Shown one piece after another: positions 1 through 45,805 of a DNA stretch of 45,805 nt (the first letter of the stretch is position 1; each line of letters begins with the position of its first letter). The DNA is from Enterobacteria phage vB_EcoS_Rogue1. The notes under the pieces are model-generated. The model did no database searches. It was not told the origin of the DNA and saw only the letters and a list, made by a program, of their open reading frames with translations. The stretch lies in sequence record NC_019718.1, one strand, 5' to 3'. The position numbers were made by a program, and so were the translations under genes.

Positions 1-114
1 ATTTCATCGAGTGCAACAGGTTTATTGATTGTTGCCAGTTTGGCAATGATGGATGGATGGATTGAATGAAAGGAGGTTTGGATCAAATGGTTGGTTGGTT
101 TTATCGCTCGCGGA

Positions 115-275
115 GAGACTTCTTTTATATACGCGTAGTCCGCCGTCTACCGATTGTCGACCGTATCCACATTTACAATTTATACGCCTTTATACAATCC
201 ATATACATTAAAATATCATTATATATAAAGGACTTAGACTATTATTATTATTATATATAGTATTATGTATATATA
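115..275. repeat. AT-rich imperfect direct repeat, copy A (core 217-273 with (TTA)4 microsatellite); paralogue at 26513-26672
   Basis: By-eye alignment: about 85% identity over the ~55-bp core (TTATATA..AAGG..TTAGA..TATTATTATTATTATATAT..TATGTATA), weaker similarity extending ~100 bp upstream (ATATACGCGTA, CGATTGTCGAC/CGATGTA, TTTATACGCC). Confidence 0.6.
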
Positions 276-329
276 GCGTATCCTATGTACGCCGCTATCT
301 GTGATGGGTTGCTTAATTTTCTATTTTTA

Positions 330-346
330 TTCCTACATTGTAGGAA
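330..346. repeat. perfect 8-bp-arm palindrome TTCCTACA-T-TGTAGGAA, with a partial second copy CCTTGTAGGAA at 355-365
   Basis: Read directly from sequence; lies in the noncoding leader region 1-554. Confidence 0.5.
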
Positions 347-492
347 TTGGACTACCTTGTAGGAAAATATAGGGGTATAGGCAGGAATGCACTAATAATT
401 TGGATACGGCGGGTACGCCATGACTACACCCAGCAATGACGCGGCATGCAGAGGAGAGAATGTAATTATTTATCGAATACATAAAAAATACC

Positions 493-521
493 TTGATATA
501 CACGTATCTACTTGCTATAGT
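493..521 (+). promoter_or_regulatory. sigma70-like promoter (TTGATA, 17-bp spacer, TATAGT) followed by conserved leader CATCGAAACG
   Basis: -35 TTGATA at 493-498, 17-bp spacer, -10 TATAGT at 516-521; RBS GAGAGG upstream of the ATG at 555/561. Confidence 0.6.
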
Positions 522-554
522 CATTCCATCGAAACGCGATAAACAACGAGAGGA

Positions 555-1103
555 ATGAAAATGAGCAAATCAACACTTGGCGAAGTAATTCGATTCATGG
601 CTAAAAAAGCACTCCAGTCAGAGAGCAAGGAGTGCATGGTTCCAGTTCGGTCGATATTTAAAGAGGTTCGTGGAGAGGATTACCCAGAGGTTGACGTTAA
701 CGAGAAGGATGGATTAACGAAAACAATTAAAAGTAGATCAATGAATGAGTTAAAAAACTCATATATTTACAATACTGTTTCACGGATGAATGAGCTGAGA
801 GAGGCAAATGTTAGAGCTAGATATAAATTCATCTGGCTTGATGAAGACAAAGAGGAAACAACCCCAGCTGCGTATGACGGTGACGGCGCAGATAAATACC
901 TGGTAATCTATATCGAAAATGGCTCAGTCGAACCTAGGGCGAAGCAAAAGGAGAAAGCTAAGCAGGAGCAGGCCGCAATCGATAGGTTTAAGGCTCGCTT
1001 GCTTAAGTTATCACCTAACGTACTGGATTTTGAAGGCGATGAGCTGAACGGCGCAGTTAAAGCTATCCGTATGTATCAAGAGATGATCAAGGAGTTTAAC
1101 TAA
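555..1103 (+). CDS. hypothetical early protein (182 aa; start may be ATG 561)
   Basis: Long ORF following the promoter and GAGAGG RBS; no motif recognised. Confidence 0.6.
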   Translation: MKMSKSTLGEVIRFMAKKALQSESKECMVPVRSIFKEVRGEDYPEVDVNEKDGLTKTIKSRSMNELKNSYIYNTVSRMNELREANVRARYKFIWLDEDKEETTPAAYDGDGADKYLVIYIENGSVEPRAKQKEKAKQEQAAIDRFKARLLKLSPNVLDFEGDELNGAVKAIRMYQEMIKEFN

Positions 1104-1189
1104 TGTTTGATTTCAGCGAAGATAAATTGACTGATGAGCAGATTGAGAAGCTAAAGCGGAAGAAAAAATATCTCCTGACCGGTAAATAG
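1103..1189 (+). CDS. small ORF (28 aa) whose N-terminus MFDFSEDKLTDEQ resembles that of the 530-aa protein at 41856-43448
   Basis: ATG overlaps the upstream stop (TAATG); the stop TAG is the first triplet of the palindromic box. Confidence 0.25.
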   Translation: MFDFSEDKLTDEQIEKLKRKKKYLLTGK

Positions 1190-1229
1190 CACTAATTGCT
1201 AAACAATAAATTGGGTAGTCAGCTATGAT
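1187..1229 (+). promoter_or_regulatory. palindromic box TAGCA-CTAAT-TGCTA (1187-1201), 22-bp spacer, -10-like TATGAT (1224-1229)
   Basis: Member of the repeated box family; downstream leader CAACCAAACGAGAGG precedes the ATG at 1261. Confidence 0.5.
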
Positions 1230-1260
1230 TGCCTTATCAACCAAACGAGAGGAATTAAAT

Positions 1261-1500
1261 ATGATTACCATCAACCTGTCAGAAGAGCACGCTGCCGAAA
1301 TTAAAACCGTGTTAATGCACTGCCTCAATCGCAAGTTGTTTAGTGCGTCAGAGTCGCTTACAGAGGTCGTGACCCAGATTCGCAATCAAGAGTTCGACGA
1401 TAAAGACGATCTTCCGTGGGATACAGATACCGCATGGAGCCGATACGAGCAGGTTTGCACGGCGCTATCAGGTTGCCAACTGGCTAGCCAATACAAGTGA
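1261..1500 (+). CDS. hypothetical protein (79 aa)
   Basis: Start refined to the ATG preceded by GAGAGG RBS; the ORF track start at 1225 lies inside the -10 element. Confidence 0.5.
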   Translation: MITINLSEEHAAEIKTVLMHCLNRKLFSASESLTEVVTQIRNQEFDDKDDLPWDTDTAWSRYEQVCTALSGCQLASQYK

Positions 1501-1726
1501 CAATCTACGAACACAAATTCAGCAGCAGGGGTATCGATATGCTCCTGCATTACGTAGACGAACAATACGCCATGTTGATGCAGAAGACGCATGGCGGCAC
1601 TATAACGAGGGTTGAAATATGTACTACTATATGATTCCTGTTGAAGATTTGATTCTTGATTACAATCACGGCTACATTGCTGTATGCGACGCTGATACAA
1701 TGACTGCATATGTTGACTTTGAATTT

Positions 1727-1754
1727 GAGGATTGAGATATGAGGATTGAGATAT
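1727..1754 (+). repeat. exact 14-bp tandem duplication GAGGATTGAGATAT x2, duplicating the RBS and start region
   Basis: 1727-1740 and 1741-1754 are identical; the second copy supplies the ATG at 1753. Confidence 0.7.
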
Positions 1755-2052
1755 GAGTAAGTACGAAAAAGAGATTATTGGCCTGGACGGCACCAAGACT
1801 ACGGTTGATGTATATCGCGTCATCGCAGCATTTGGCGTAACGGACCCGGCACTACAGCATGCCATCAAAAAGGTACTGTGCAGCGGCATTCGAACACGAC
1901 ATAAGGATTACCCTACCGACATCAATGAGGCCATTGTATCGCTTCAGAAGGCCATAGAATTCCATGATCAAAGGGGCGCACATGTCCAGGAACTTATAGA
2001 CAAGTATCGCAACGGACCTAAACATTATCTTGATAGCTGGAGCAACAAATAG
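1753..2052 (+). CDS. hypothetical protein (99 aa)
   Basis: ORF with GAGG RBS supplied by the tandem duplication; stop overlaps the next palindromic box. Confidence 0.55.
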   Translation: MSKYEKEIIGLDGTKTTVDVYRVIAAFGVTDPALQHAIKKVLCSGIRTRHKDYPTDINEAIVSLQKAIEFHDQRGAHVQELIDKYRNGPKHYLDSWSNK

Positions 2053-2092
2053 CACAAATTGCTAAACATCCATCGCAAGGATGCGTTACCAT
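2050..2092 (+). promoter_or_regulatory. palindromic box TAGCA-CAAAT-TGCTA (2050-2064) plus -10-like TACCAT
   Basis: Box begins on the stop codon of the upstream gene; leader TTTATCGAAATGAGACGAGG precedes the ATG at 2125. Confidence 0.45.
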
Positions 2093-2124
2093 TACTTTAT
2101 CGAAATGAGACGAGGAAAGATTAA

Positions 2125-2253
2125 ATGTGTGGATATGATGAGTTGCCAAGTGAATGGTGTAAAAAGATGATGGATAAGGCTAAAGATGGGGATGAAGTAA
2201 TGGCGTACTTTGAGTTGATGAACATGTGGCATGAGCGCGAGGAGAAGAAATGA
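2125..2253 (+). CDS. small Cys-containing hypothetical protein (42 aa)
   Basis: ATG after GAGG RBS; stop overlaps the next start (ATGA). Confidence 0.35.
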   Translation: MCGYDELPSEWCKKMMDKAKDGDEVMAYFELMNMWHEREEKK

Positions 2254-2543
2254 AGATTAACGTATTCACTGGCAACTTATTGGCAGCCAACGATTCTGAA
2301 GGTGGTGACGGCAAGCGAGCAATTCACATGGGGAGTAAGAAACAAAAAATGAGGCGCATATCTATTGATGAAGCAATTAAAATTGGTAGCTTCGTTTGCT
2401 TGTGGGTATGTGATGGTGAGCTTCAAGCGGAACAGGTTAGGAATGGTTACGTATATACTGGATATGATGAATATGACGATGAGAGAGAATTGTTTCAGCC
2501 TGCATTTTATCTCGACGCTGAATTTTACATCGCTGGAGAATAA
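2250..2543 (+). CDS. hypothetical protein (97 aa)
   Basis: ORF coupled to the upstream gene by ATGA overlap. Confidence 0.5.
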   Translation: MKINVFTGNLLAANDSEGGDGKRAIHMGSKKQKMRRISIDEAIKIGSFVCLWVCDGELQAEQVRNGYVYTGYDEYDDERELFQPAFYLDAEFYIAGE

Positions 2544-2546
2544 CCC

Positions 2547-2924
2547 ATGATATGGATTCACACGTACTACACTGGCAAGTTCAATAGCGTAATGCACAAA
2601 CGAATGTATGACAGCTATGAATCAGCAAAGGCACAGCAGGCAGTCCTAGGTGGCGATATTTCAATCTTACAAGAAGGCTTAATCATGTTCGGACTTACTC
2701 AACCACAATTTAATGCAGTTCGCGCCCAAGCTAAGAAACTTAACGAGGCAGTGGATAAGCTGACAAGCAAGCAGAAGCAGGATAATGACATCATGAAGGC
2801 GATTATCTGTGAGTTTCATAGCCCAGTCAGTACAATCATCGAGAAGATGAAGTTTGTTTGGGTTGCAGGCTATCTTGCTGGTCGCGTAGGTAAGCGTGAA
2901 GATGGGGAGCAGATTTATGACTAA
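2547..2924 (+). CDS. hypothetical protein (125 aa)
   Basis: ORF in the same early cluster; start uncertain. Confidence 0.45.
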   Translation: MIWIHTYYTGKFNSVMHKRMYDSYESAKAQQAVLGGDISILQEGLIMFGLTQPQFNAVRAQAKKLNEAVDKLTSKQKQDNDIMKAIICEFHSPVSTIIEKMKFVWVAGYLAGRVGKREDGEQIYD

Positions 2925-3386: not shown

Positions 3387-3462
3387 GTTCTGCTGGCGTA
3401 ACAGGATAACGCAGAGACCTCCTAAGTCTCAGTTGCTGGTTCGAGTCCAGTGCGGAACACCA
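3387..3462 (+). tRNA. tRNA-Arg, anticodon CCU (reads AGG)
   Basis: Hand-folded cloverleaf: acceptor GTTCTGC/GCGGAAC (one G-U pair), D-stem GCGT/ACGC, anticodon stem GAGAC/GTCTC, loop CTCCTAA with U33 and A37, 4-nt variable loop, T-stem GCTGG/CCAGT, T-loop TTCGAGT, discriminator A, encoded CCA; 76 nt. Confidence 0.85.
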
Positions 3463-9563: not shown

Positions 9564-11009
9564 ATGGCTTACACAGAAATTGCTATGGCAGTAGGTAATT
9601 CACCTGAAACCTTAGCCAGAAACGTAAAAATGATGATTTCATCAGGATTCCAGCCATATGGCGACGTGCAGATGCTGAGCGGTACCCTATTTGGCATGAA
9701 GATGGCAAAAGGAACAGCAAACAACGTTGAAGACTTCATGGTTACATCAGACACCACAATTCAGGGTTTAGTTAACAGGGTTAACCGATATCTAGCACAG
9801 GGCTGGCGAAGGTTTGGTAATGCCCACTTCGAGGATGGCGCTTATATTTCAGCTCTGGCGAAAGGTGATTTTGTAAGTGATGAGGGCGGAGGTTCAGGTG
9901 AAGCAGGTCCACAAGGTCCGGTTGGTCCAGCTGGCCCCGCAGGCGTAGCTGGTCCGCAAGGTCCGCAAGGTCCACAAGGCCCAGCTGGTGCTACCGGCCC
10001 GGCAGGCGCGGCTGGCGCTAAAGGTGACACTGGCCCCGCAGGCGTAGCTGGTCCGCAAGGTCCACAAGGTGAGACTGGAGAAGCTGGTCCACAGGGTTCT
10101 ATCGGCCCAACAGGCGCCACAGGTCCATCCGGACCAAAAGGTGATAAAGGTGATGCAGGTCCAGTTGGCCCTGCGGGATTGACTTTCCGCGGGATGTACG
10201 ACGCAGCGACAGCTTACGTTAAAGATGATGTTGTTACATTCAATAGCTCCAGCTGGTTTGCTACCACCGCTGTGACCGGAGAGAATCCAGATATTAGCGA
10301 TTCCTGGGAGTTGCTGGCCGCACAGGGCGCCCCGGGTCCGCAAGGCGCAACTGGTCCAACAGGTCCAACTGGCCCGGCAGGTCCGGCAGGTATTCAAGGG
10401 GCTCAGGGAGAGAGAGGGATTCAGGGTGAGCAAGGTCCGTCAGGCCCGCAAGGCTTGCAAGGTGCAGCTGGTCCAGTTGGACCTCAAGGCCCAGCAGGTC
10501 CGCAGGGTGAGCGAGGAATACAGGGTCCGGTTGGCCCTCAAGGTCCAATTGGCCCTAAAGGCGATAAAGGTGACGCAGGGATGTCAAGATCATTCCTTAA
10601 AGTTAGAACATCACCAAATACAGGCACTAATCACATGATTAGGCTTCCAGCACCTTTAAGCAATATTTCTATAGGGATAAGACTGGATTCAAACATTCGT
10701 TTTAGTATTAGGGCTTGGATTGATGATGGCACTACAGCTAGAACTATAAGGGGTAATATTGAAGCGTTCAATGAAACTGGAGTTTACACTAACACAACAG
10801 TAAGAACTTCGATATCTACATCAACAGAAACTGGCACAGTACTTCTTGGTGATATTGGAGAGTTCCAAGGTATCAGGCCATACACTCTTAGTTTTTATGA
10901 AACCACAACAGACACAATGTGGAGAGCAACCATAAATCTATTTACAGCTGGATACATTGTGAATGGAAACCAAGCCCTATGCATAGAGCTAGTAAGGCTT
11001 GATGCATAA
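9564..11009 (+). CDS. collagen-like (Gly-X-Y repeat) protein with non-collagenous N- and C-terminal domains
   Basis: Two long runs of [12 protein letters not shown] triplets (about 9880-10180 and 10320-10580); opposite-strand ORFs here are repeat artefacts. Confidence 0.8.
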
Positions 11010-34429: not shown

Positions 34430-36373
34430 ATGGAAAACCGATTGAAAACAATACAAAAACAGATTGAAGAATTGGGCGAAGATAAGATTAAAGAGATTCA
34501 AACTAAATTCACCTCTTCTAACGGTATGGTTCCGTATAGCTATCAGTGTGTTATGTACAATGAGATTGCAAAGCGCATTAGTCGCTATGAGCATCCATTT
34601 ATCGCAATGGCTTCAGTTTCTGCTGGTAAGACTCTGGTTTTTGGTATGGTTGCTAAGCGTTGCTCTGAGCTTGGCTTGCCTATGCTTGTTCTTGCTCGTC
34701 AGGCAGAGCTGGTTAGCCAGAATGCTTCTGAGATTTCTGATTACGGGGTTCCTAACTCCATTTATTGCTCTGGGCTTGGAATAAAATCATCTTATTTCCC
34801 TGTGGTGGTTGGCTCTGAGGGCACAGTAGTTGGCGGGCTTAAGAAGTCACTTGGCGATTTCTGTCCTGCGGTAGTTGCTATTGATGAGTGTCACCATATT
34901 GATGACCAGGACATAGCGGAGGCAATTGATAACAATGAGACTGCGCAACAGGCATCAGATAAGGGGCGTAGCCAGTATACGGTCATCATCCTGACTTTAA
35001 TGGAGCGCTGCCGTGCTAAGTATGGCAAGAATCTTCGTATCTTTGGACTGACTGGTTCTCCTTTCCGTGGAACTACGCCAATAGTTGTTGAAAACAAAAA
35101 GGAGTTGGGATTTTGGCGTGAGACGGTCACAAATATCGATACAAACTACCTGGTCGAGTTCGGTTCCGTGGTTCCGACAAACTTTGGTGCTACTGATGGC
35201 GTTGGTTACGACCTCTCAGAGTTTGATGCATCATCTGAAGATGGTGTTCAGGATTACACTAAAGCCCAGCTTGAAGCCATGGATAAAAAGATTCAGGCAT
35301 CTGGAACAATGACAGCGGAGATAATGAAGAAAGTATGGCTTGCCGCGAAAAACAGGAATGGAGTTCTGGTAACATGCGCAGGTGAGCGCCATTGCCACGA
35401 AGCCGCAAGTTACCTTCCTGAAGGTGAAAAGTTCTGCATTATAACTGGAAAGACTGGCGAGAAGCAGCGCAAGGAGTTGCTTGATAAGTGCTTTAGCGGG
35501 GAGATTAAATATTGCTTTCAGGTTCAGGCGCTAACCACTGGCGTAAATGTGCCTACATGGGATACAAGCGTTATTCTGCGTAAGATTGGTAGCCTTACGC
35601 TCCTGGTTCAGCTACTTGGTCGAGGAATGCGTAAGCTTAAGAAGCTCCATGAAGATAAAGGAATGGTCAAGAATGACCATTTGGTACTGGACTTCGCAGG
35701 AACGATGGACTCTATGGCATCATTGTACTTCAATCCAATTCTTGAGCAGGCTCAATATCAGCTACGAAAGAGTAATGGCAAGGAGACTAAGCAGTGTCCA
35801 GTATGCGGAACAGAGAACAGCTTCTTTGCTCGACGTTGCATGCATATTGATGAGAATAATAATCGCTGCGAATATTTCTGGGTTAGTCGCACATGTGAAG
35901 ACCAGAAAGACCCACGAACCGGAAAGGTTATCGTTAAAGGCTGCGGAGTTCAGAATGACGTTGCAGCTAAGATTTGTAGGGGTTGCGATTGCACTTTGCT
36001 TGATCCAAATCTCAACTTAAGCGGCAAACATTACCGCAAGAACGACTGGTTTGATGTTGTTGACTTTAAGGTTGGGCTAACAAAGAACCAATCAGGAATC
36101 ATCTACAACTACATCCTTGATGATGGCATGGGTGGGACATTCAAAGCTCATGAGGTTTTCTTTGTAGAGTCTGACCATCGAGTATGTAAAACGCTCTGGT
36201 TGAACAATGGAATTAAAGGTCACGTAGTCGACATGAACGCTAAGCGATATATGGCTGCATATCGCAATGCTCGCAAGATTATGGAGTATGCGCAGTACAT
36301 CCATGCCCCTAAGAGGGTAACTCACCGCAAGACCGCTAAAGGTGGCGATAATATTGCTAATAAGGAGTTCTAA
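34430..36373 (+). CDS. superfamily-2 DNA helicase with C-terminal zinc ribbon
   Basis: Walker A SAGKTLV, DECHH box, QLLGRGMR arginine-finger motif, C-terminal CPVCG...C..C; start refined to the ATG at 34430. Confidence 0.75.
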   Translation: MENRLKTIQKQIEELGEDKIKEIQTKFTSSNGMVPYSYQCVMYNEIAKRISRYEHPFIAMASVSAGKTLVFGMVAKRCSELGLPMLVLARQAELVSQNASEISDYGVPNSIYCSGLGIKSSYFPVVVGSEGTVVGGLKKSLGDFCPAVVAIDECHHIDDQDIAEAIDNNETAQQASDKGRSQYTVIILTLMERCRAKYGKNLRIFGLTGSPFRGTTPIVVENKKELGFWRETVTNIDTNYLVEFGSVVPTNFGATDGVGYDLSEFDASSEDGVQDYTKAQLEAMDKKIQASGTMTAEIMKKVWLAAKNRNGVLVTCAGERHCHEAASYLPEGEKFCIITGKTGEKQRKELLDKCFSGEIKYCFQVQALTTGVNVPTWDTSVILRKIGSLTLLVQLLGRGMRKLKKLHEDKGMVKNDHLVLDFAGTMDSMASLYFNPILEQAQYQLRKSNGKETKQCPVCGTENSFFARRCMHIDENNNRCEYFWVSRTCEDQKDPRTGKVIVKGCGVQNDVAAKICRGCDCTLLDPNLNLSGKHYRKNDWFDVVDFKVGLTKNQSGIIYNYILDDGMGGTFKAHEVFFVESDHRVCKTLWLNNGIKGHVVDMNAKRYMAAYRNARKIMEYAQYIHAPKRVTHRKTAKGGDNIANKEF

Positions 36374-36820: not shown

Positions 36821-37015
36821 ATGAATACTATCTACACTGAAAAGCTGTACAAGTCACGCAAAACTGGTTATGAATATGAATTAGCAATCACCCCTGAGGG
36901 TTATATTCTTGATGATGGAGACGGTTACTCATTCGAAGTTAGCCCAACATACAAAGATGATTTAGAGACTGTTAAAAACGCATTCGGCGAAAAATTTGAT
37001 GAGGTGTCAGAATAA
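36821..37015 (+). CDS. hypothetical protein (64 aa)
   Basis: Start refined to the ATG downstream of the promoter and leader. Confidence 0.5.
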   Translation: MNTIYTEKLYKSRKTGYEYELAITPEGYILDDGDGYSFEVSPTYKDDLETVKNAFGEKFDEVSE

Positions 37016-41855: not shown

Positions 41856-43448
41856 TTACCCCAGCAGCCGTGGATTGATATATACCTTGTCACCAATCAG
41901 GCAGGTATAGTTTTTATCATCAAGCATCGGGAGTAAGTGGTCTTTAATTTTAGCCATAACACCAGCCTGTGACTCGAAAGGTCGAACCTTACGCGCAGCT
42001 TCATAAAGTGAACGCAAACCCACAACTCCTTTACTGTTCTTGCCTTGCTTGATAAGGATATCAATTAACTTGTTCATCTCAGCGTTATCGCCAGCATGAC
42101 CAGCTGCGTTAGCTGAGGATAAGTAAGTCTTACTAAGTTCTCCAAACATCAACAAAGCCTCTTGCATGGTTTCCAGTTCAATCTCCCTGGACTTCTGCGG
42201 ACTACCGCCATTGGGGTTAAACCAGTTACGGATAGTGTGAAGAACGGCAGCAAGGCGAATTACCTGTTTATCCATTTTACCTAACGCGCCGCGCAGCATT
42301 GTGTGTGAATACTTACCGCCATCTGCAAGGTGTGGCTCCATTTCCTGTCGAGCACGGTTAAGGTGCTTCATTGCTGAGTTACTAATAGTCAACTTCACAT
42401 CTTGCTCACTCATAATTTCATGAACAAGACGGAAGTAATCAGCCTTCAACGATCCGTCAATCGGCTCATATGTTGACTCGCCATTATCATCGACGAAAAC
42501 ACGCTCACCAAGGAATGACTTTTCACGCACAAGCAAGAAACGTTCGGATACACCAATACCGCGAGCACCAGCATTCATGATTGCGACTATTGTTTCATCC
42601 TGCGCAATTACAGAAATACACCCCAGAGCAATAAAGCTCATGTTGTTCTCTGCGTTCGCACGCGCGATAGATACGTTACCAGCATCCCAGGCCTTAAGTA
42701 CCAGTTCGCTGTTTGTTTTCTTTGTTCCATCACCATAGGTCATGCCCAGCAGTGAGTTGACGCTCGTCGCCTCATCCGAGATGACAGCGAAGCTACCCTG
42801 ACGATGGTTAATGCGTGCCAGACCTTCAGGAGTAGTATCAGATACAGGGAATACGATGTCGCAAAGTTTCTCGAGCTTATCTTCCAGCTCCTCCTTCTCC
42901 TCAAACAAACCAGCCATCTCAGAAGGCGACTTCTCCTGCTTCATTTCTTTAGCCAGAGCCGACAGCTTGGCCATGATCTTTTTACGGTCACGCTTACGCA
43001 GATCGTTTAGTCGCTCAGTCTCTGCAATCATTGGAGCCAGAGACAGCGAGTTAATGGCAGATTTACCAGTTGATGGAGGCTGGCTGGTCACTACATACAG
43101 TGATGTTGGTTGTTGAGTTCCGTGATACTCAACCGTAAAGCGACCCAACATAGCTGCCGAGATGCAACCAAGGAAGTGCATATAAGCAGATGATTCAGGA
43201 AACTGAACAGAACGAGCAATGTTGCTTGATAGTTTGCCAACTACATCATAGTCGTTACCAAGCGAGATAACAGGATACTTGTCGCCAGTAGAATCAATCT
43301 CAACCGGAGCTTTCCAGAATGATGCGCTCTGGCGATAACCGTTCGCATTAATAGCAACACGTAAAGGAGGTAATCCATCCTGAGCGGCAATAGTCATTAC
43401 TTGTTCAACAGTCAATTTGTCATCATTAAAATCAAACATTATTATCAT
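41856..43448 (-). CDS. hypothetical protein (530 aa) with P-loop-like motif PPSTGKS
   Basis: Long ORF; Walker A-like SQPPSTGKSAINS about 120 aa from the N-terminus; function not recognised. Confidence 0.55.
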   Translation of the reverse strand: MIIMFDFNDDKLTVEQVMTIAAQDGLPPLRVAINANGYRQSASFWKAPVEIDSTGDKYPVISLGNDYDVVGKLSSNIARSVQFPESSAYMHFLGCISAAMLGRFTVEYHGTQQPTSLYVVTSQPPSTGKSAINSLSLAPMIAETERLNDLRKRDRKKIMAKLSALAKEMKQEKSPSEMAGLFEEKEELEDKLEKLCDIVFPVSDTTPEGLARINHRQGSFAVISDEATSVNSLLGMTYGDGTKKTNSELVLKAWDAGNVSIARANAENNMSFIALGCISVIAQDETIVAIMNAGARGIGVSERFLLVREKSFLGERVFVDDNGESTYEPIDGSLKADYFRLVHEIMSEQDVKLTISNSAMKHLNRARQEMEPHLADGGKYSHTMLRGALGKMDKQVIRLAAVLHTIRNWFNPNGGSPQKSREIELETMQEALLMFGELSKTYLSSANAAGHAGDNAEMNKLIDILIKQGKNSKGVVGLRSLYEAARKVRPFESQAGVMAKIKDHLLPMLDDKNYTCLIGDKVYINPRLLG

Positions 43449-45054: not shown

Positions 45055-45294
45055 TTACCTCACCTCATCAAAAGTTGCGACACCAGGGATAAACATTCCG
45101 ACCTTCCAACCTGCGATAGCAATCCATCCAGAATCGTGCTTGTGCGGTCGCTCGGCGCCATTAATCACCCACTCGTTCGGGATTGTCTTGCCGTTAATGA
45201 TTAGCAGCTCAGCTTCGTATACAGAGCCTTTTACAAATGGCGTCAAAACCTTTTTGTCTGTACTGTTAATAACGTTTGTGCAGCGAATTTTCAT
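45055..45294 (-). CDS. hypothetical protein (79 aa)
   Basis: ORF with GAGG RBS. Confidence 0.5.
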   Translation of the reverse strand: MKIRCTNVINSTDKKVLTPFVKGSVYEAELLIINGKTIPNEWVINGAERPHKHDSGWIAIAGWKVGMFIPGVATFDEVR

Positions 45295-45306
45295 ATCTCA
45301 ATCCTC

Positions 45307-45483
45307 AAATAAATGGTAAACATTCGACGCAGCCAAGTCCATCGCAGCACAGAAATCCATCTTCTGACTGGAATTGCTTAGCCAAATCAATGTCCAGCTT
45401 TCCGCGCAGCACAAGGTTGGTGTAAACTTCGTTAAGTCCAATCAGTGCGCATTCGTGGCGCAAATCGTCTTTATCAATCTTCA
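45307..45483 (-). CDS. hypothetical Cys-rich protein (58 aa, CCDGLGCVEC)
   Basis: Found by manual translation; GAGGTAGAG RBS. Confidence 0.4.
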
Positions 45484-45668: not shown

Positions 45669-45695
45669 ATCTATCTCCTCGTTGTTGATGAGTTT

Positions 45696-45739
45696 ACTAT
45701 AGCCTTGCCATCCCCATTTGTCTTTAGCAAAAAGTGCTA
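45696..45739 (-). promoter_or_regulatory. palindromic box (45725-45739) plus -10 TATAGT (complement of 45696-45701)
   Basis: Box family member in minus orientation with 23-bp spacer. Confidence 0.5.
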
Positions 45740-45805
45740 TTCGTCAGATTTATGGATTGTTGCAGGCATTGCGATGATTAGCATGACTATTACACATAAA
45801 GCAAT

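Follow-up and report, generated by a model that had tools for sequence, protein, structure and literature searches.

Phage T1 is a founding model phage, and T1-like phages are both common laboratory contaminants and candidates for therapy. The site at which packaging of their DNA begins, pac, has so far been defined only approximately. In TLS, a submolar restriction fragment served to map it, and AGATTT was named as the site (PMC11447400); in UDF157lw, whose authors rearranged the genome to agree with PhageTerm, packaging was predicted to be headful with a preferred pac site (PMC10838988); and in MSK, which is Rtp-like, the forward start called by PhageTerm is at 36,862 (p = 1.6e-9; PMC8421802). 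The replication origin of T1-like phages was reported as not found, both for SU57 in 2020 (PMC7718038) and for TLS in 2024 (PMC11447400). Here we describe the left end of Enterobacteria phage vB_EcoS_Rogue1 (NC_019718.1), whose whole record of 45,805 nucleotides (the window) was analysed. We lean towards reading bases 1-554, together with 45671-45805, as the left-end control region of a T1-like genome composed of four adjacent cis-acting modules, one of which, an iteron/AT-rich element termed E, has a second copy elsewhere in the genome and is a candidate origin of replication.

The nearest matches to the first 1200 bases are the Escherichia phages e4/1c (92%), Jk06, AHP42, BECP10 and UDF157lw, and the matching phages are classified as Drexlerviridae, Rogunavirinae, Rogunavirus (T1/Rtp-like). 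Since alignments of the relatives run unbroken through the junction 45805|1, the window is a complete, circularly closed genome, and the point at which the record opens would be an arbitrary or conventional one in a circular Rogunavirus genome. A sequence-only reading had delimited the region as the first 554 bp and labelled it a leader. The region extends across the record end as a divergent intergenic region of 689 bp (45671-45805 plus 1-554), flanked by leftward small genes that end at 45670 and by a rightward gene that starts at 555. Nor does the label of leader fit, as nearly all of the region is upstream of the promoter at 493-521 and the 5' untranslated region (UTR) is limited to ~528-554. 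The same reading offered an origin, a pac site or a regulatory hub as possible roles; our analysis suggests that these are three adjacent modules and not alternatives. The pac assignment is well supported, by homology, for 45746-110 only; the promoter and a palindrome make up the regulatory part; and an origin is a reasonable interpretation of 121-470. Sequence anatomy, conservation, copy number and the packaging starts of relatives mapped onto the region are established, and from them we infer the binding proteins, the exact cut position in Rogue1 and any origin activity.

Element E is present in two paralogous copies: E_A (121-470, + strand), delimited by pairwise alignment, a 25-copy alignment and nhmmer; and E_B (26509-26870, + strand), located between a cor-like lipoprotein gene and the Rha/recE-erf-ssb operon. 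The repeat previously noticed at 26513-26672 is real, but it is only part of a far longer paralogy of ~350 nt (120-470 versus 26516-26870 by pairwise alignment) that is conserved across the phage family. Searched with an nhmmer profile of the E core, the genome yields two significant hits and no more, at 121-278 and 26509-26682 (E = 1.4e-25 for E_A, a copy that was in the training set). Within E_A, four direct iterons (TTTACAAT, TATACGCC, TATACAAT and TATACATT; 174-211, + strand, with TAC at 174, 183, 193 and 204) reach the AT-rich core, a (TAT)n segment of 88% A+T at 207-266 that a nearest-neighbour scan marks as a candidate DNA-unwinding element. Three inverted iterons (266-292, - strand, TAC at 266, 277 and 286) face this core, and three more phased iterons, GATACGGC, GGTACGCC and ACTACACC, form a second cluster at 405-432 (+ strand, TAC at 405, 414 and 425). 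E_B has the same layout, with its AT-rich core at 26606-26665, inverted iterons at 26665 and 26674, and the second cluster at 26783-26808.

The iteron words are strongly enriched in the two copies, where TATAC occurs 9 times (0.41 expected), TACGC 8 times (0.57 expected) and ATACGC 5 times (0.08 expected). Among 12 copies of E, same-strand TAC(A/G) pairs are separated by 9-11, 19-21 and 30-31 nt in 46, 26 and 11 cases, respectively, against ~1.3 expected per band, a spacing that places the iterons on one face of the helix. E thus contains short direct and inverted repeats at helical spacing, and adjacent to them an AT-rich segment of low computed stability, the candidate DNA-unwinding element. 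By nearest-neighbour stability of 60-nt segments, the cores of E_A (-54.8 kcal/mol) and E_B (-57.3 kcal/mol) are the two least stable duplexes genome-wide; the third lowest value is -63.5 kcal/mol and the genome mean is -79.5 kcal/mol (standard deviation 4.9).

Two other features of these copies were observed. A weak promoter-like sequence, TATACA-N16-AATAAT, occupies the same position on the minus strand of both copies (271-244 and 26670-26643). It consists of an inverted iteron and the (ATA)n tract, is directed into the AT-rich core and is not above chance for AT-rich DNA; it could matter if the core were opened or primed by transcription. In addition, the circular GenBank record of Jk06 opens exactly at window position 26527, inside E_B and just past the ACGCGT of the first iteron, and phiJLA23 matches this stretch at two places of its record, which was possibly opened nearby.

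Two copies of E per genome, at the same two syntenic places, are found in Rogunavirinae, Rtp-like phages, T1, TLS and the Klebsiella phage KP36. E_B matches 133 phage records, and a scan of IMG/VR with a degenerate pattern recovers 22 genuine copies of E, including eight contigs with two copies each (Rtp, AHS24, phiEB49, IME542 and phiKP26 among them). A collection scan with ATTATTATTATTATATA matched only unrelated AT-rich viral contigs, and a plasmid search with both copies gave zero matches. In an alignment of 25 A and B copies from ~13 phages, the iteron and (ATT)n blocks are invariant, and the consensus reads tACgCGTaA..tGT.a..TGTatA..cc.c..TaTACGc..ttACGC..TACGCa.T.GTTACA..TATATA..AA...TTTA...ATTATTATTATTA..TAT..TgTa.TAt..tGTA.Ac, with a second TAC-type repeat array 100-150 nt downstream.

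The 25-copy alignment also bears on whether the region hides small protein-coding genes, such as the open reading frame (ORF) at 66-260 or those annotated in relatives. ORFs of 30-64 amino acids are indeed present, and short coding sequences are annotated in the equivalent region of AHP24, OzMSK and KP36, but no frame across the core stays open among the 25 copies. The poly-Tyr ORF at 66-260 had been dismissed from the sequence as an artefact of (TAT)n; its poly-Tyr stretch is indeed no more than (TAT)n, and the ORF is not conserved. We consider hidden genes very improbable. Equally little can be said for the idea, also contained in the sequence-only reading, that the region encodes a structured RNA, either a noncoding RNA or an mRNA leader. 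Folding z-scores are mildly negative (-1.4 to -2.3), but they are similar on both strands, as expected of inverted repeats at the DNA level, and Rfam 15 has no match in 1-554 or 26500-27000 even at E <= 1, the only hit that passes threshold being a tRNA at 3387-3459. Moreover, what is conserved is a set of short repeated motifs plus a low-complexity AT tract, and the sole strong promoter is at the 3' end of the region and directed away from it. A structured RNA is, in our judgement, a far-fetched explanation.

The low stability of the E cores is a property of the group. When the stability minima were scanned in four whole genomes (Rogue1, T1, TLS and KP36), the E cores were ~5 standard deviations from the genome mean in each. 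The two global minima coincide with the two syntenic E sites in T1 (215 and 30014) and in TLS (217 and 28823), and those of KP36 were forecast beforehand and then found at 301 and 34789, against a genome mean of -84.7. The iterons themselves are lineage-specific and common to the paralogous A and B copies of one lineage: TACGC/GTTACA in Rogue1 and Rtp; ATTACGCC/GTGTAACAG in T1; GTTCAC/GAACA in TLS; and TCTTACC/GGTAAGAT (GGTAAGA) in KP36. The sharing of lineage-specific iterons by the two copies of a genome points to a single co-evolving trans-acting factor.

In E, phased iterons that co-vary between the two copies surround, in inverted orientation, the most meltable segments of the genome, which is how iteron-type origins are built. 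This architecture, together with the replication proteins that the phage encodes and the reports that no origin had been found, favours the view that E is an origin. The gene set includes a primase (32888-33811), two helicases (34379-36373 and 41856-43448), a single-strand binding protein (SSB) and recombination proteins. E is probably a replication origin, a conclusion to which we give close to an even chance, with E_A and E_B acting either as two origins or as a pair resembling ori and crr. A phage-encoded iteron-binding protein would coat the E sites and open the AT-rich core, and the opened core would let the phage primase and helicases begin replication. Somewhat more tentatively, we propose that the paired elements may serve as the origins of the whole Drexlerviridae (T1, TLS, Rtp, Rogue1-like phages and Klebsiella Weberviruses): at both loci a fast-evolving phage protein acting on lineage-specific iterons would melt the (TAT)n core, and the last iterons would also switch off the first early promoter. 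A duplicated iteron/AT-rich element of this kind appears to be undescribed in the accessible literature.

Several observations weigh against an origin. The case for this function is drawn from the architecture of E, and a search for the initiator gave no candidate among the DUF3987 helicase, the primase, a helix-turn-helix (HTH) regulator, the SF2 helicase and the product of the first gene (gene 1). In the first four of these, no domain has a divergence that tracks the change in iterons. Between Rogue1 and TLS, the DUF3987 helicase has 53-86% identity from one alignment block to another, a conservation too high, in lineages whose iterons differ, to account for the change in specificity. For gene 1, a PDB fold search was uninformative, returning helical-hairpin noise and a weak, non-significant resemblance to CtsR, a DNA-binding repressor. 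Neither copy of E is within or beside the primase or helicase genes, as would be expected of an origin near its initiator gene; E_A is upstream of gene 1 and E_B upstream of the Rha/recE-erf-ssb operon. The Rogue1 copies have no DnaA-box cluster, GATC cluster or IHF consensus. Finally, both copies are upstream of early operons in a fixed orientation, which transcriptional control fits equally well, and E_A directly adjoins pac, which is compatible with a role in packaging.

Some further results concern the candidate proteins and origin types. A DnaA-dependent origin of the oriC type does not fit, as DnaA boxes and GATC sites are not clustered: there is one 8/9 match to the DnaA box (163-171) among 16 genome-wide, and GATC occurs once in region A and nowhere in region B. 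A PDB search returned no sequence relative of the helicase. Gene 1 differs greatly between subfamilies (8-28% identity), which in itself proves nothing about iteron binding. Its structure predicted from the single sequence was unusable (pLDDT 54.6); with 23 homologues, AlphaFold reached a pLDDT of 76.5 and modelled an alpha/beta N-terminal domain followed by a long C-terminal helical hairpin.

The position of E relative to genes raises the possibility that both copies are multi-site arrays bound by a transcription factor of phage or host origin, working as enhancers, silencers or insulators on the early operons downstream (that beginning with gene 1, and Rha/recE-erf-ssb); the AT-rich core would then be a segment that bends or an architectural one of the H-NS/IHF type. 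Copy B is always upstream of the recE-erf-ssb operon in the same relative orientation, including in KP36, where the operon is inverted. In that phage E_B (34514-35008) has moved and turned with the operon, so that E_B seems to act as a unit with the operon's upstream region. Both copies also occupy divergent-promoter regions, the last iteron pair is inside the spacer of the early promoter, and by our own reading the Rtp-type copies contain a consensus IHF site, TATCAACCTTTTA. In Rogue1, however, the copies lack this consensus, and the distance from the AT-rich core to the promoter downstream, ~230-290 nt, is too large for an UP element. The downstream promoters also differ in type, one being a consensus sigma-70 promoter and the other of a 21-nt-repeat kind. 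Moreover, at least 10 phased sites and the two least stable segments have been kept in four subfamilies despite the change in iterons, which is more than regulators usually need. A purely regulatory array is therefore an unlikely explanation, albeit one that deserves some weight. A literature search found no transcriptome study of a Drexlerviridae phage.

The module adjoining E_A is the pac-proximal one, which spans the record end (45746-45805 and 1-110, both + strand). The sequence GATTGTTGC has only two occurrences in the 45.8 kb of the genome, at 45755 and 27, both at the pac junction, and each is followed by (T/G)GC(G/A)ATGAT, giving two 24-nt direct repeats 77 nt apart: unit 1, GATTGTTGCAGGCATTGCGATGAT (45755-45778), in the left half; and unit 2, GATTGTTGCCAGTTTGGCAATGAT (27-50), in the right half. 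The right half also contains a C-free GAT-rich tract of 39 nt (45-83, + strand), with (GATG)n at 48-62 (3.8 units by TRF), GGATGGATGGATT at 51-63 and GAATGAAAGG at 64-73, and then the (GGTT)3 run GGTTGGTTGGTT at 89-100. The module is kept in e4/1c, Jk06, AHP42, AHP24 and Rtp, and partly in T1, and GATTG is enriched on the top strand at the pac junction in all four genomes compared (Rogue1, T1, TLS and KP36). Motifs that are repeated at the junction and unique to it would be well suited to binding by the small terminase, which is presumably the pac-binding protein.

Relatives with published packaging data place the start within this module. The GenBank record of T1 annotates 1..2800 as a repeat region, and T1 base 1 aligns exactly to window position 1; T1 10-58 aligns with 11-56, and the GTGCAAC, GATTGTTGC and GCAATGAT blocks are conserved at the two left ends, so that the Rogue1 module has its homologue at the left end of the terminal redundancy of T1. 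The first base of the UDF157lw record aligns to position 79 in a stretch nearly identical to Rogue1, and the PhageTerm start of MSK aligns to position 86. AGATTT of TLS is base 1 of that record and belongs to the longest C-free GAT-repeat tract of the TLS genome, the counterpart of window 45-83. These alignments make 45746-110 a well-supported pac region, and rightward headful packaging would start from a cleavage zone near 79-86 (~+/-20 nt, + strand), as judged by homology to UDF157lw and MSK. The small terminase may recognise an array of same-strand GATTG/GCAATGAT motifs, consisting of the two 24-nt direct repeats and the C-free GATG tract, with the first cut of the concatemer at ~79-86 and headful packaging continuing rightward. 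Two points tell against so precise a placement: the position in Rogue1 is drawn from homology, two PhageTerm reports and one restriction map, all in relatives; and the deposited start of T1 (window 1) is ~80 nt from the PhageTerm starts.

The proximity of the two modules suggests another role for E_A, as the right-hand part of pac and a binding array for the terminase small subunit (in the manner of SPP1 pacR or the P1 pac hexamer sets), with E_B a secondary or vestigial terminase site. E_A begins ~40 nt from the inferred cut, and the adjacency of pac and E_A is kept in T1, TLS, KP36 and Rtp. Repeat sets flanking the cut are, in addition, typical of pac sites, as in P1 and SPP1. E_B, however, lacks the pac-specific GATTGTTGC/GCAATGAT repeats, and no packaging role is apparent for a complete second copy of the same anatomy that lies 26 kb off and, in every case, upstream of recE. 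Subfamilies share a conserved terminase gene but differ sharply in their iterons (a qualitative comparison), and the MSK paper quotes one PhageTerm start, in the A region (PMC8421802). We regard a pac-arm function as improbable and continue to prefer an origin for E.

The sequence on the two sides of this boundary differs in its affinities. A recombination breakpoint is located at ~103-136: to its left (45301-103), Rogue1 is 96% identical to AHP24, and to its right it follows e4/1c, Jk06 and AHP42, AHP24 having an Rtp-like version of E_A there. By this comparison, the Rogue1 genome is a mosaic at ~103.

Within the region, downstream of the first iterons of E_A, is an operator-like site (330-365), TTCCTACA-T-TGTAGGAA with a third half-site TGTAGGAA at 358-365. 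Its palindrome, TTCCTACATTGTAGGAA at 330-346, had been called perfect; the 8+8 arms of the inverted repeat are perfect, but there is an unpaired central T. TTGTAGGAA occurs again at 357-365, and the third half-site is 11 nt downstream of the palindrome. The half-sites are invariant and the spacers variable in e4/1c, in MSK/OzMSK (a different subfamily) and in one IMG/VR contig, a pattern that suggests a protein-binding operator; the palindrome was not found in the AHS24-type and Rtp A copies. By our own estimate, several 8+8 inverted repeats with a short spacer are expected per genome, so that the site is backed by conservation and not by statistics. It may be bound by some factor. Linkage of the palindrome to the gene-1 allele was tested, and none was found. 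The other motifs picked out in the sequence-only reading, GGATGGATGGATT, GGTTGGTTGGTT, TTGTAGGAA and the sigma-70 promoter, are all present as well, as is GGGGTATAGG, which occupies 372-381 and not 376-385.

The early promoter, TTGATA-N17-TATAGT (493-521, + strand), has 10 of 12 consensus matches and an extended -10 TG, and is 33 nt before the first ATG, as befits a predicted sigma-70 promoter. A strong sigma-70 promoter at a conserved position before gene 1 is also found in Rtp, KP36 (annotated at 500-528) and others, and in the A copies the last iteron pair (499-510 in Rogue1) is in its spacer. Promoter-like hits as such number 3 in the region against 5.0 +/- 2.2 in shuffles, which is not above chance. 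Host RNA polymerase would use this promoter directly after injection to express the rightward early genes, and occupancy of the iterons in its spacer could also shut it off. In the 5' UTR segment (526-555, + strand; repeat families D16 and D17) are the motif CCATCGAAACG, also found at the phage's other promoters, and, at 548-555, the Shine-Dalgarno sequence GAGAGGAA. As the latter runs by one base into the ATG at 555, the real start of gene 1 (DUF7174/PHROG 4841; 555-1103, + strand) is probably the ATG at 561, and the e4/1c homologue is annotated from MSKSTLGE, which matches this start.

At the opposite end of the intergenic region is the leftward promoter of the right-arm small genes (45687-45745, - strand; repeat families D6 and D9), with the 21-nt repeat ATAGCACnnnTTGnTAA at 45724-45740 and a -10 TATAGT at 45696-45702. 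This repeat has sixteen copies in the genome, each oriented with the downstream genes: at 1186, 2049, 12048, 19332, 26513(-), 28870, 34350, 36746, 37431, 38117, 39405, 39669, 43745(-), 43943(-), 44905(-) and 45740(-). Many of them belong to a ~65-nt module consisting of the repeat, ~22 nt ending in GGATG.., TATAGT and ..TCATCGAAACGA. By hand count, TTGnTA in this module is 21-23 nt from the -10, which is not the canonical -35 spacing.

Elsewhere in the genome, two inverted repeats of 38-40 nt (1101-1140 versus 43402-43441 and 1710-1747 versus 45286-45323), 82-83% complementary, connect boundaries between genes in the small-gene clusters of the left and right arms, which suggests paralogous small genes or common translational start regions on the divergent arms. 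Other observations include: a tRNA-Arg (anticodon CCT) among the early genes at 3387-3462, as reported in related phages; a long array of 9-nt GGN-CCN-NNN units at 9897-10570, that is, collagen-like Gly-X-Y repeats in the structural-gene region; and a sub-threshold match to the Rfam Trp_leader at 21668-21754 (31.1 bits, gathering score 41, E = 0.017), which coincides in part with a hairpin repeat of terminator type (family D11) and is probably no more than a terminator.

The pac part of the region is an orthologue of a known, roughly defined site, and the promoter is ordinary. Our analysis assigns the packaging start of these phages to a module of ~170 bp whose repeats are defined and brings three independent published mappings to one spot. 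It also provides a family-wide origin candidate in the form of a paralogous pair of iteron/AT-rich elements, the two top-ranking sites for ease of melting in all four genomes examined. If E is an origin, this would account for the large intergenic regions that these genomes conserve and make origin-based engineering possible, for instance of replicons or conditional phages; if that reading is refuted, E remains a conserved, unexplained cis-acting feature.

The closest known counterparts of the packaging module are the T1-like pac sites, namely the T1 left end and TLS pac. They agree with Rogue1 in homologous position and sequence, in lying in untranslated DNA ahead of small rightward early genes, in the C-free GAT-rich tract and in rightward packaging. 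They differ in the start, at window position 1 for T1 versus 79-86 for UDF157lw and MSK, and the Rogue1 cut is placed by homology. The repeat layout differs as well: Rogue1 has its two 24-nt units 77 nt apart, whereas T1 has GATGTGATTGTTGC twice, ~36 nt apart by hand count. An intergenic 21-nt repeat of the same kind as that of Rogue1 occurs in TLS, where its function is an open question (PMC11447400). The TLS/T1 repeat, aaATAGCACnnnTTGnTAAAA, is present in the Rogue1 leftward promoter at 45687-45745, and in Rogue1 it is outside pac and outside E. Promoters with this repeat share the -10 and downstream part, TATAGT..CCATCGAAACG, with the early promoter at 493-521, which differs from them in having a canonical -35 at 17 nt in place of the repeat.

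For element E, the origins of SaPIs offer a parallel, as they likewise have two iteron sets flanking an AT-rich region. In Escherichia coli phage-inducible chromosomal islands (PICIs), too, the origins have short repeats on both sides of an AT-rich segment that is thought to melt (PMC6092414). The PICI origins are beside their own pri-rep gene and have been proven by plasmid maintenance, whereas the Rogue1 element, a candidate origin, has two copies and is away from the primase and helicase genes. Two distant loci with the same initiator-binding repeats are found in P4, where ori and crr are bound by the alpha protein, and in SPP1, where oriL and oriR are bound by G38P. Their elements have no sequence homology to Rogue1 E; the likeness is that Rogue1 also has two distant loci with the same repeats beside AT-rich DNA. 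GTTCAC in the TLS iterons resembles the P4 type I iteron, TGTTCACC. A further likeness to the alpha type concerns the Rogue1 primase, which has the Zn-ribbon domain of primase-helicase proteins (Pfam Zn_Ribbon_Prim) and whose T1 homologue carries an annotation of similarity to alpha-type replication proteins of prophages.

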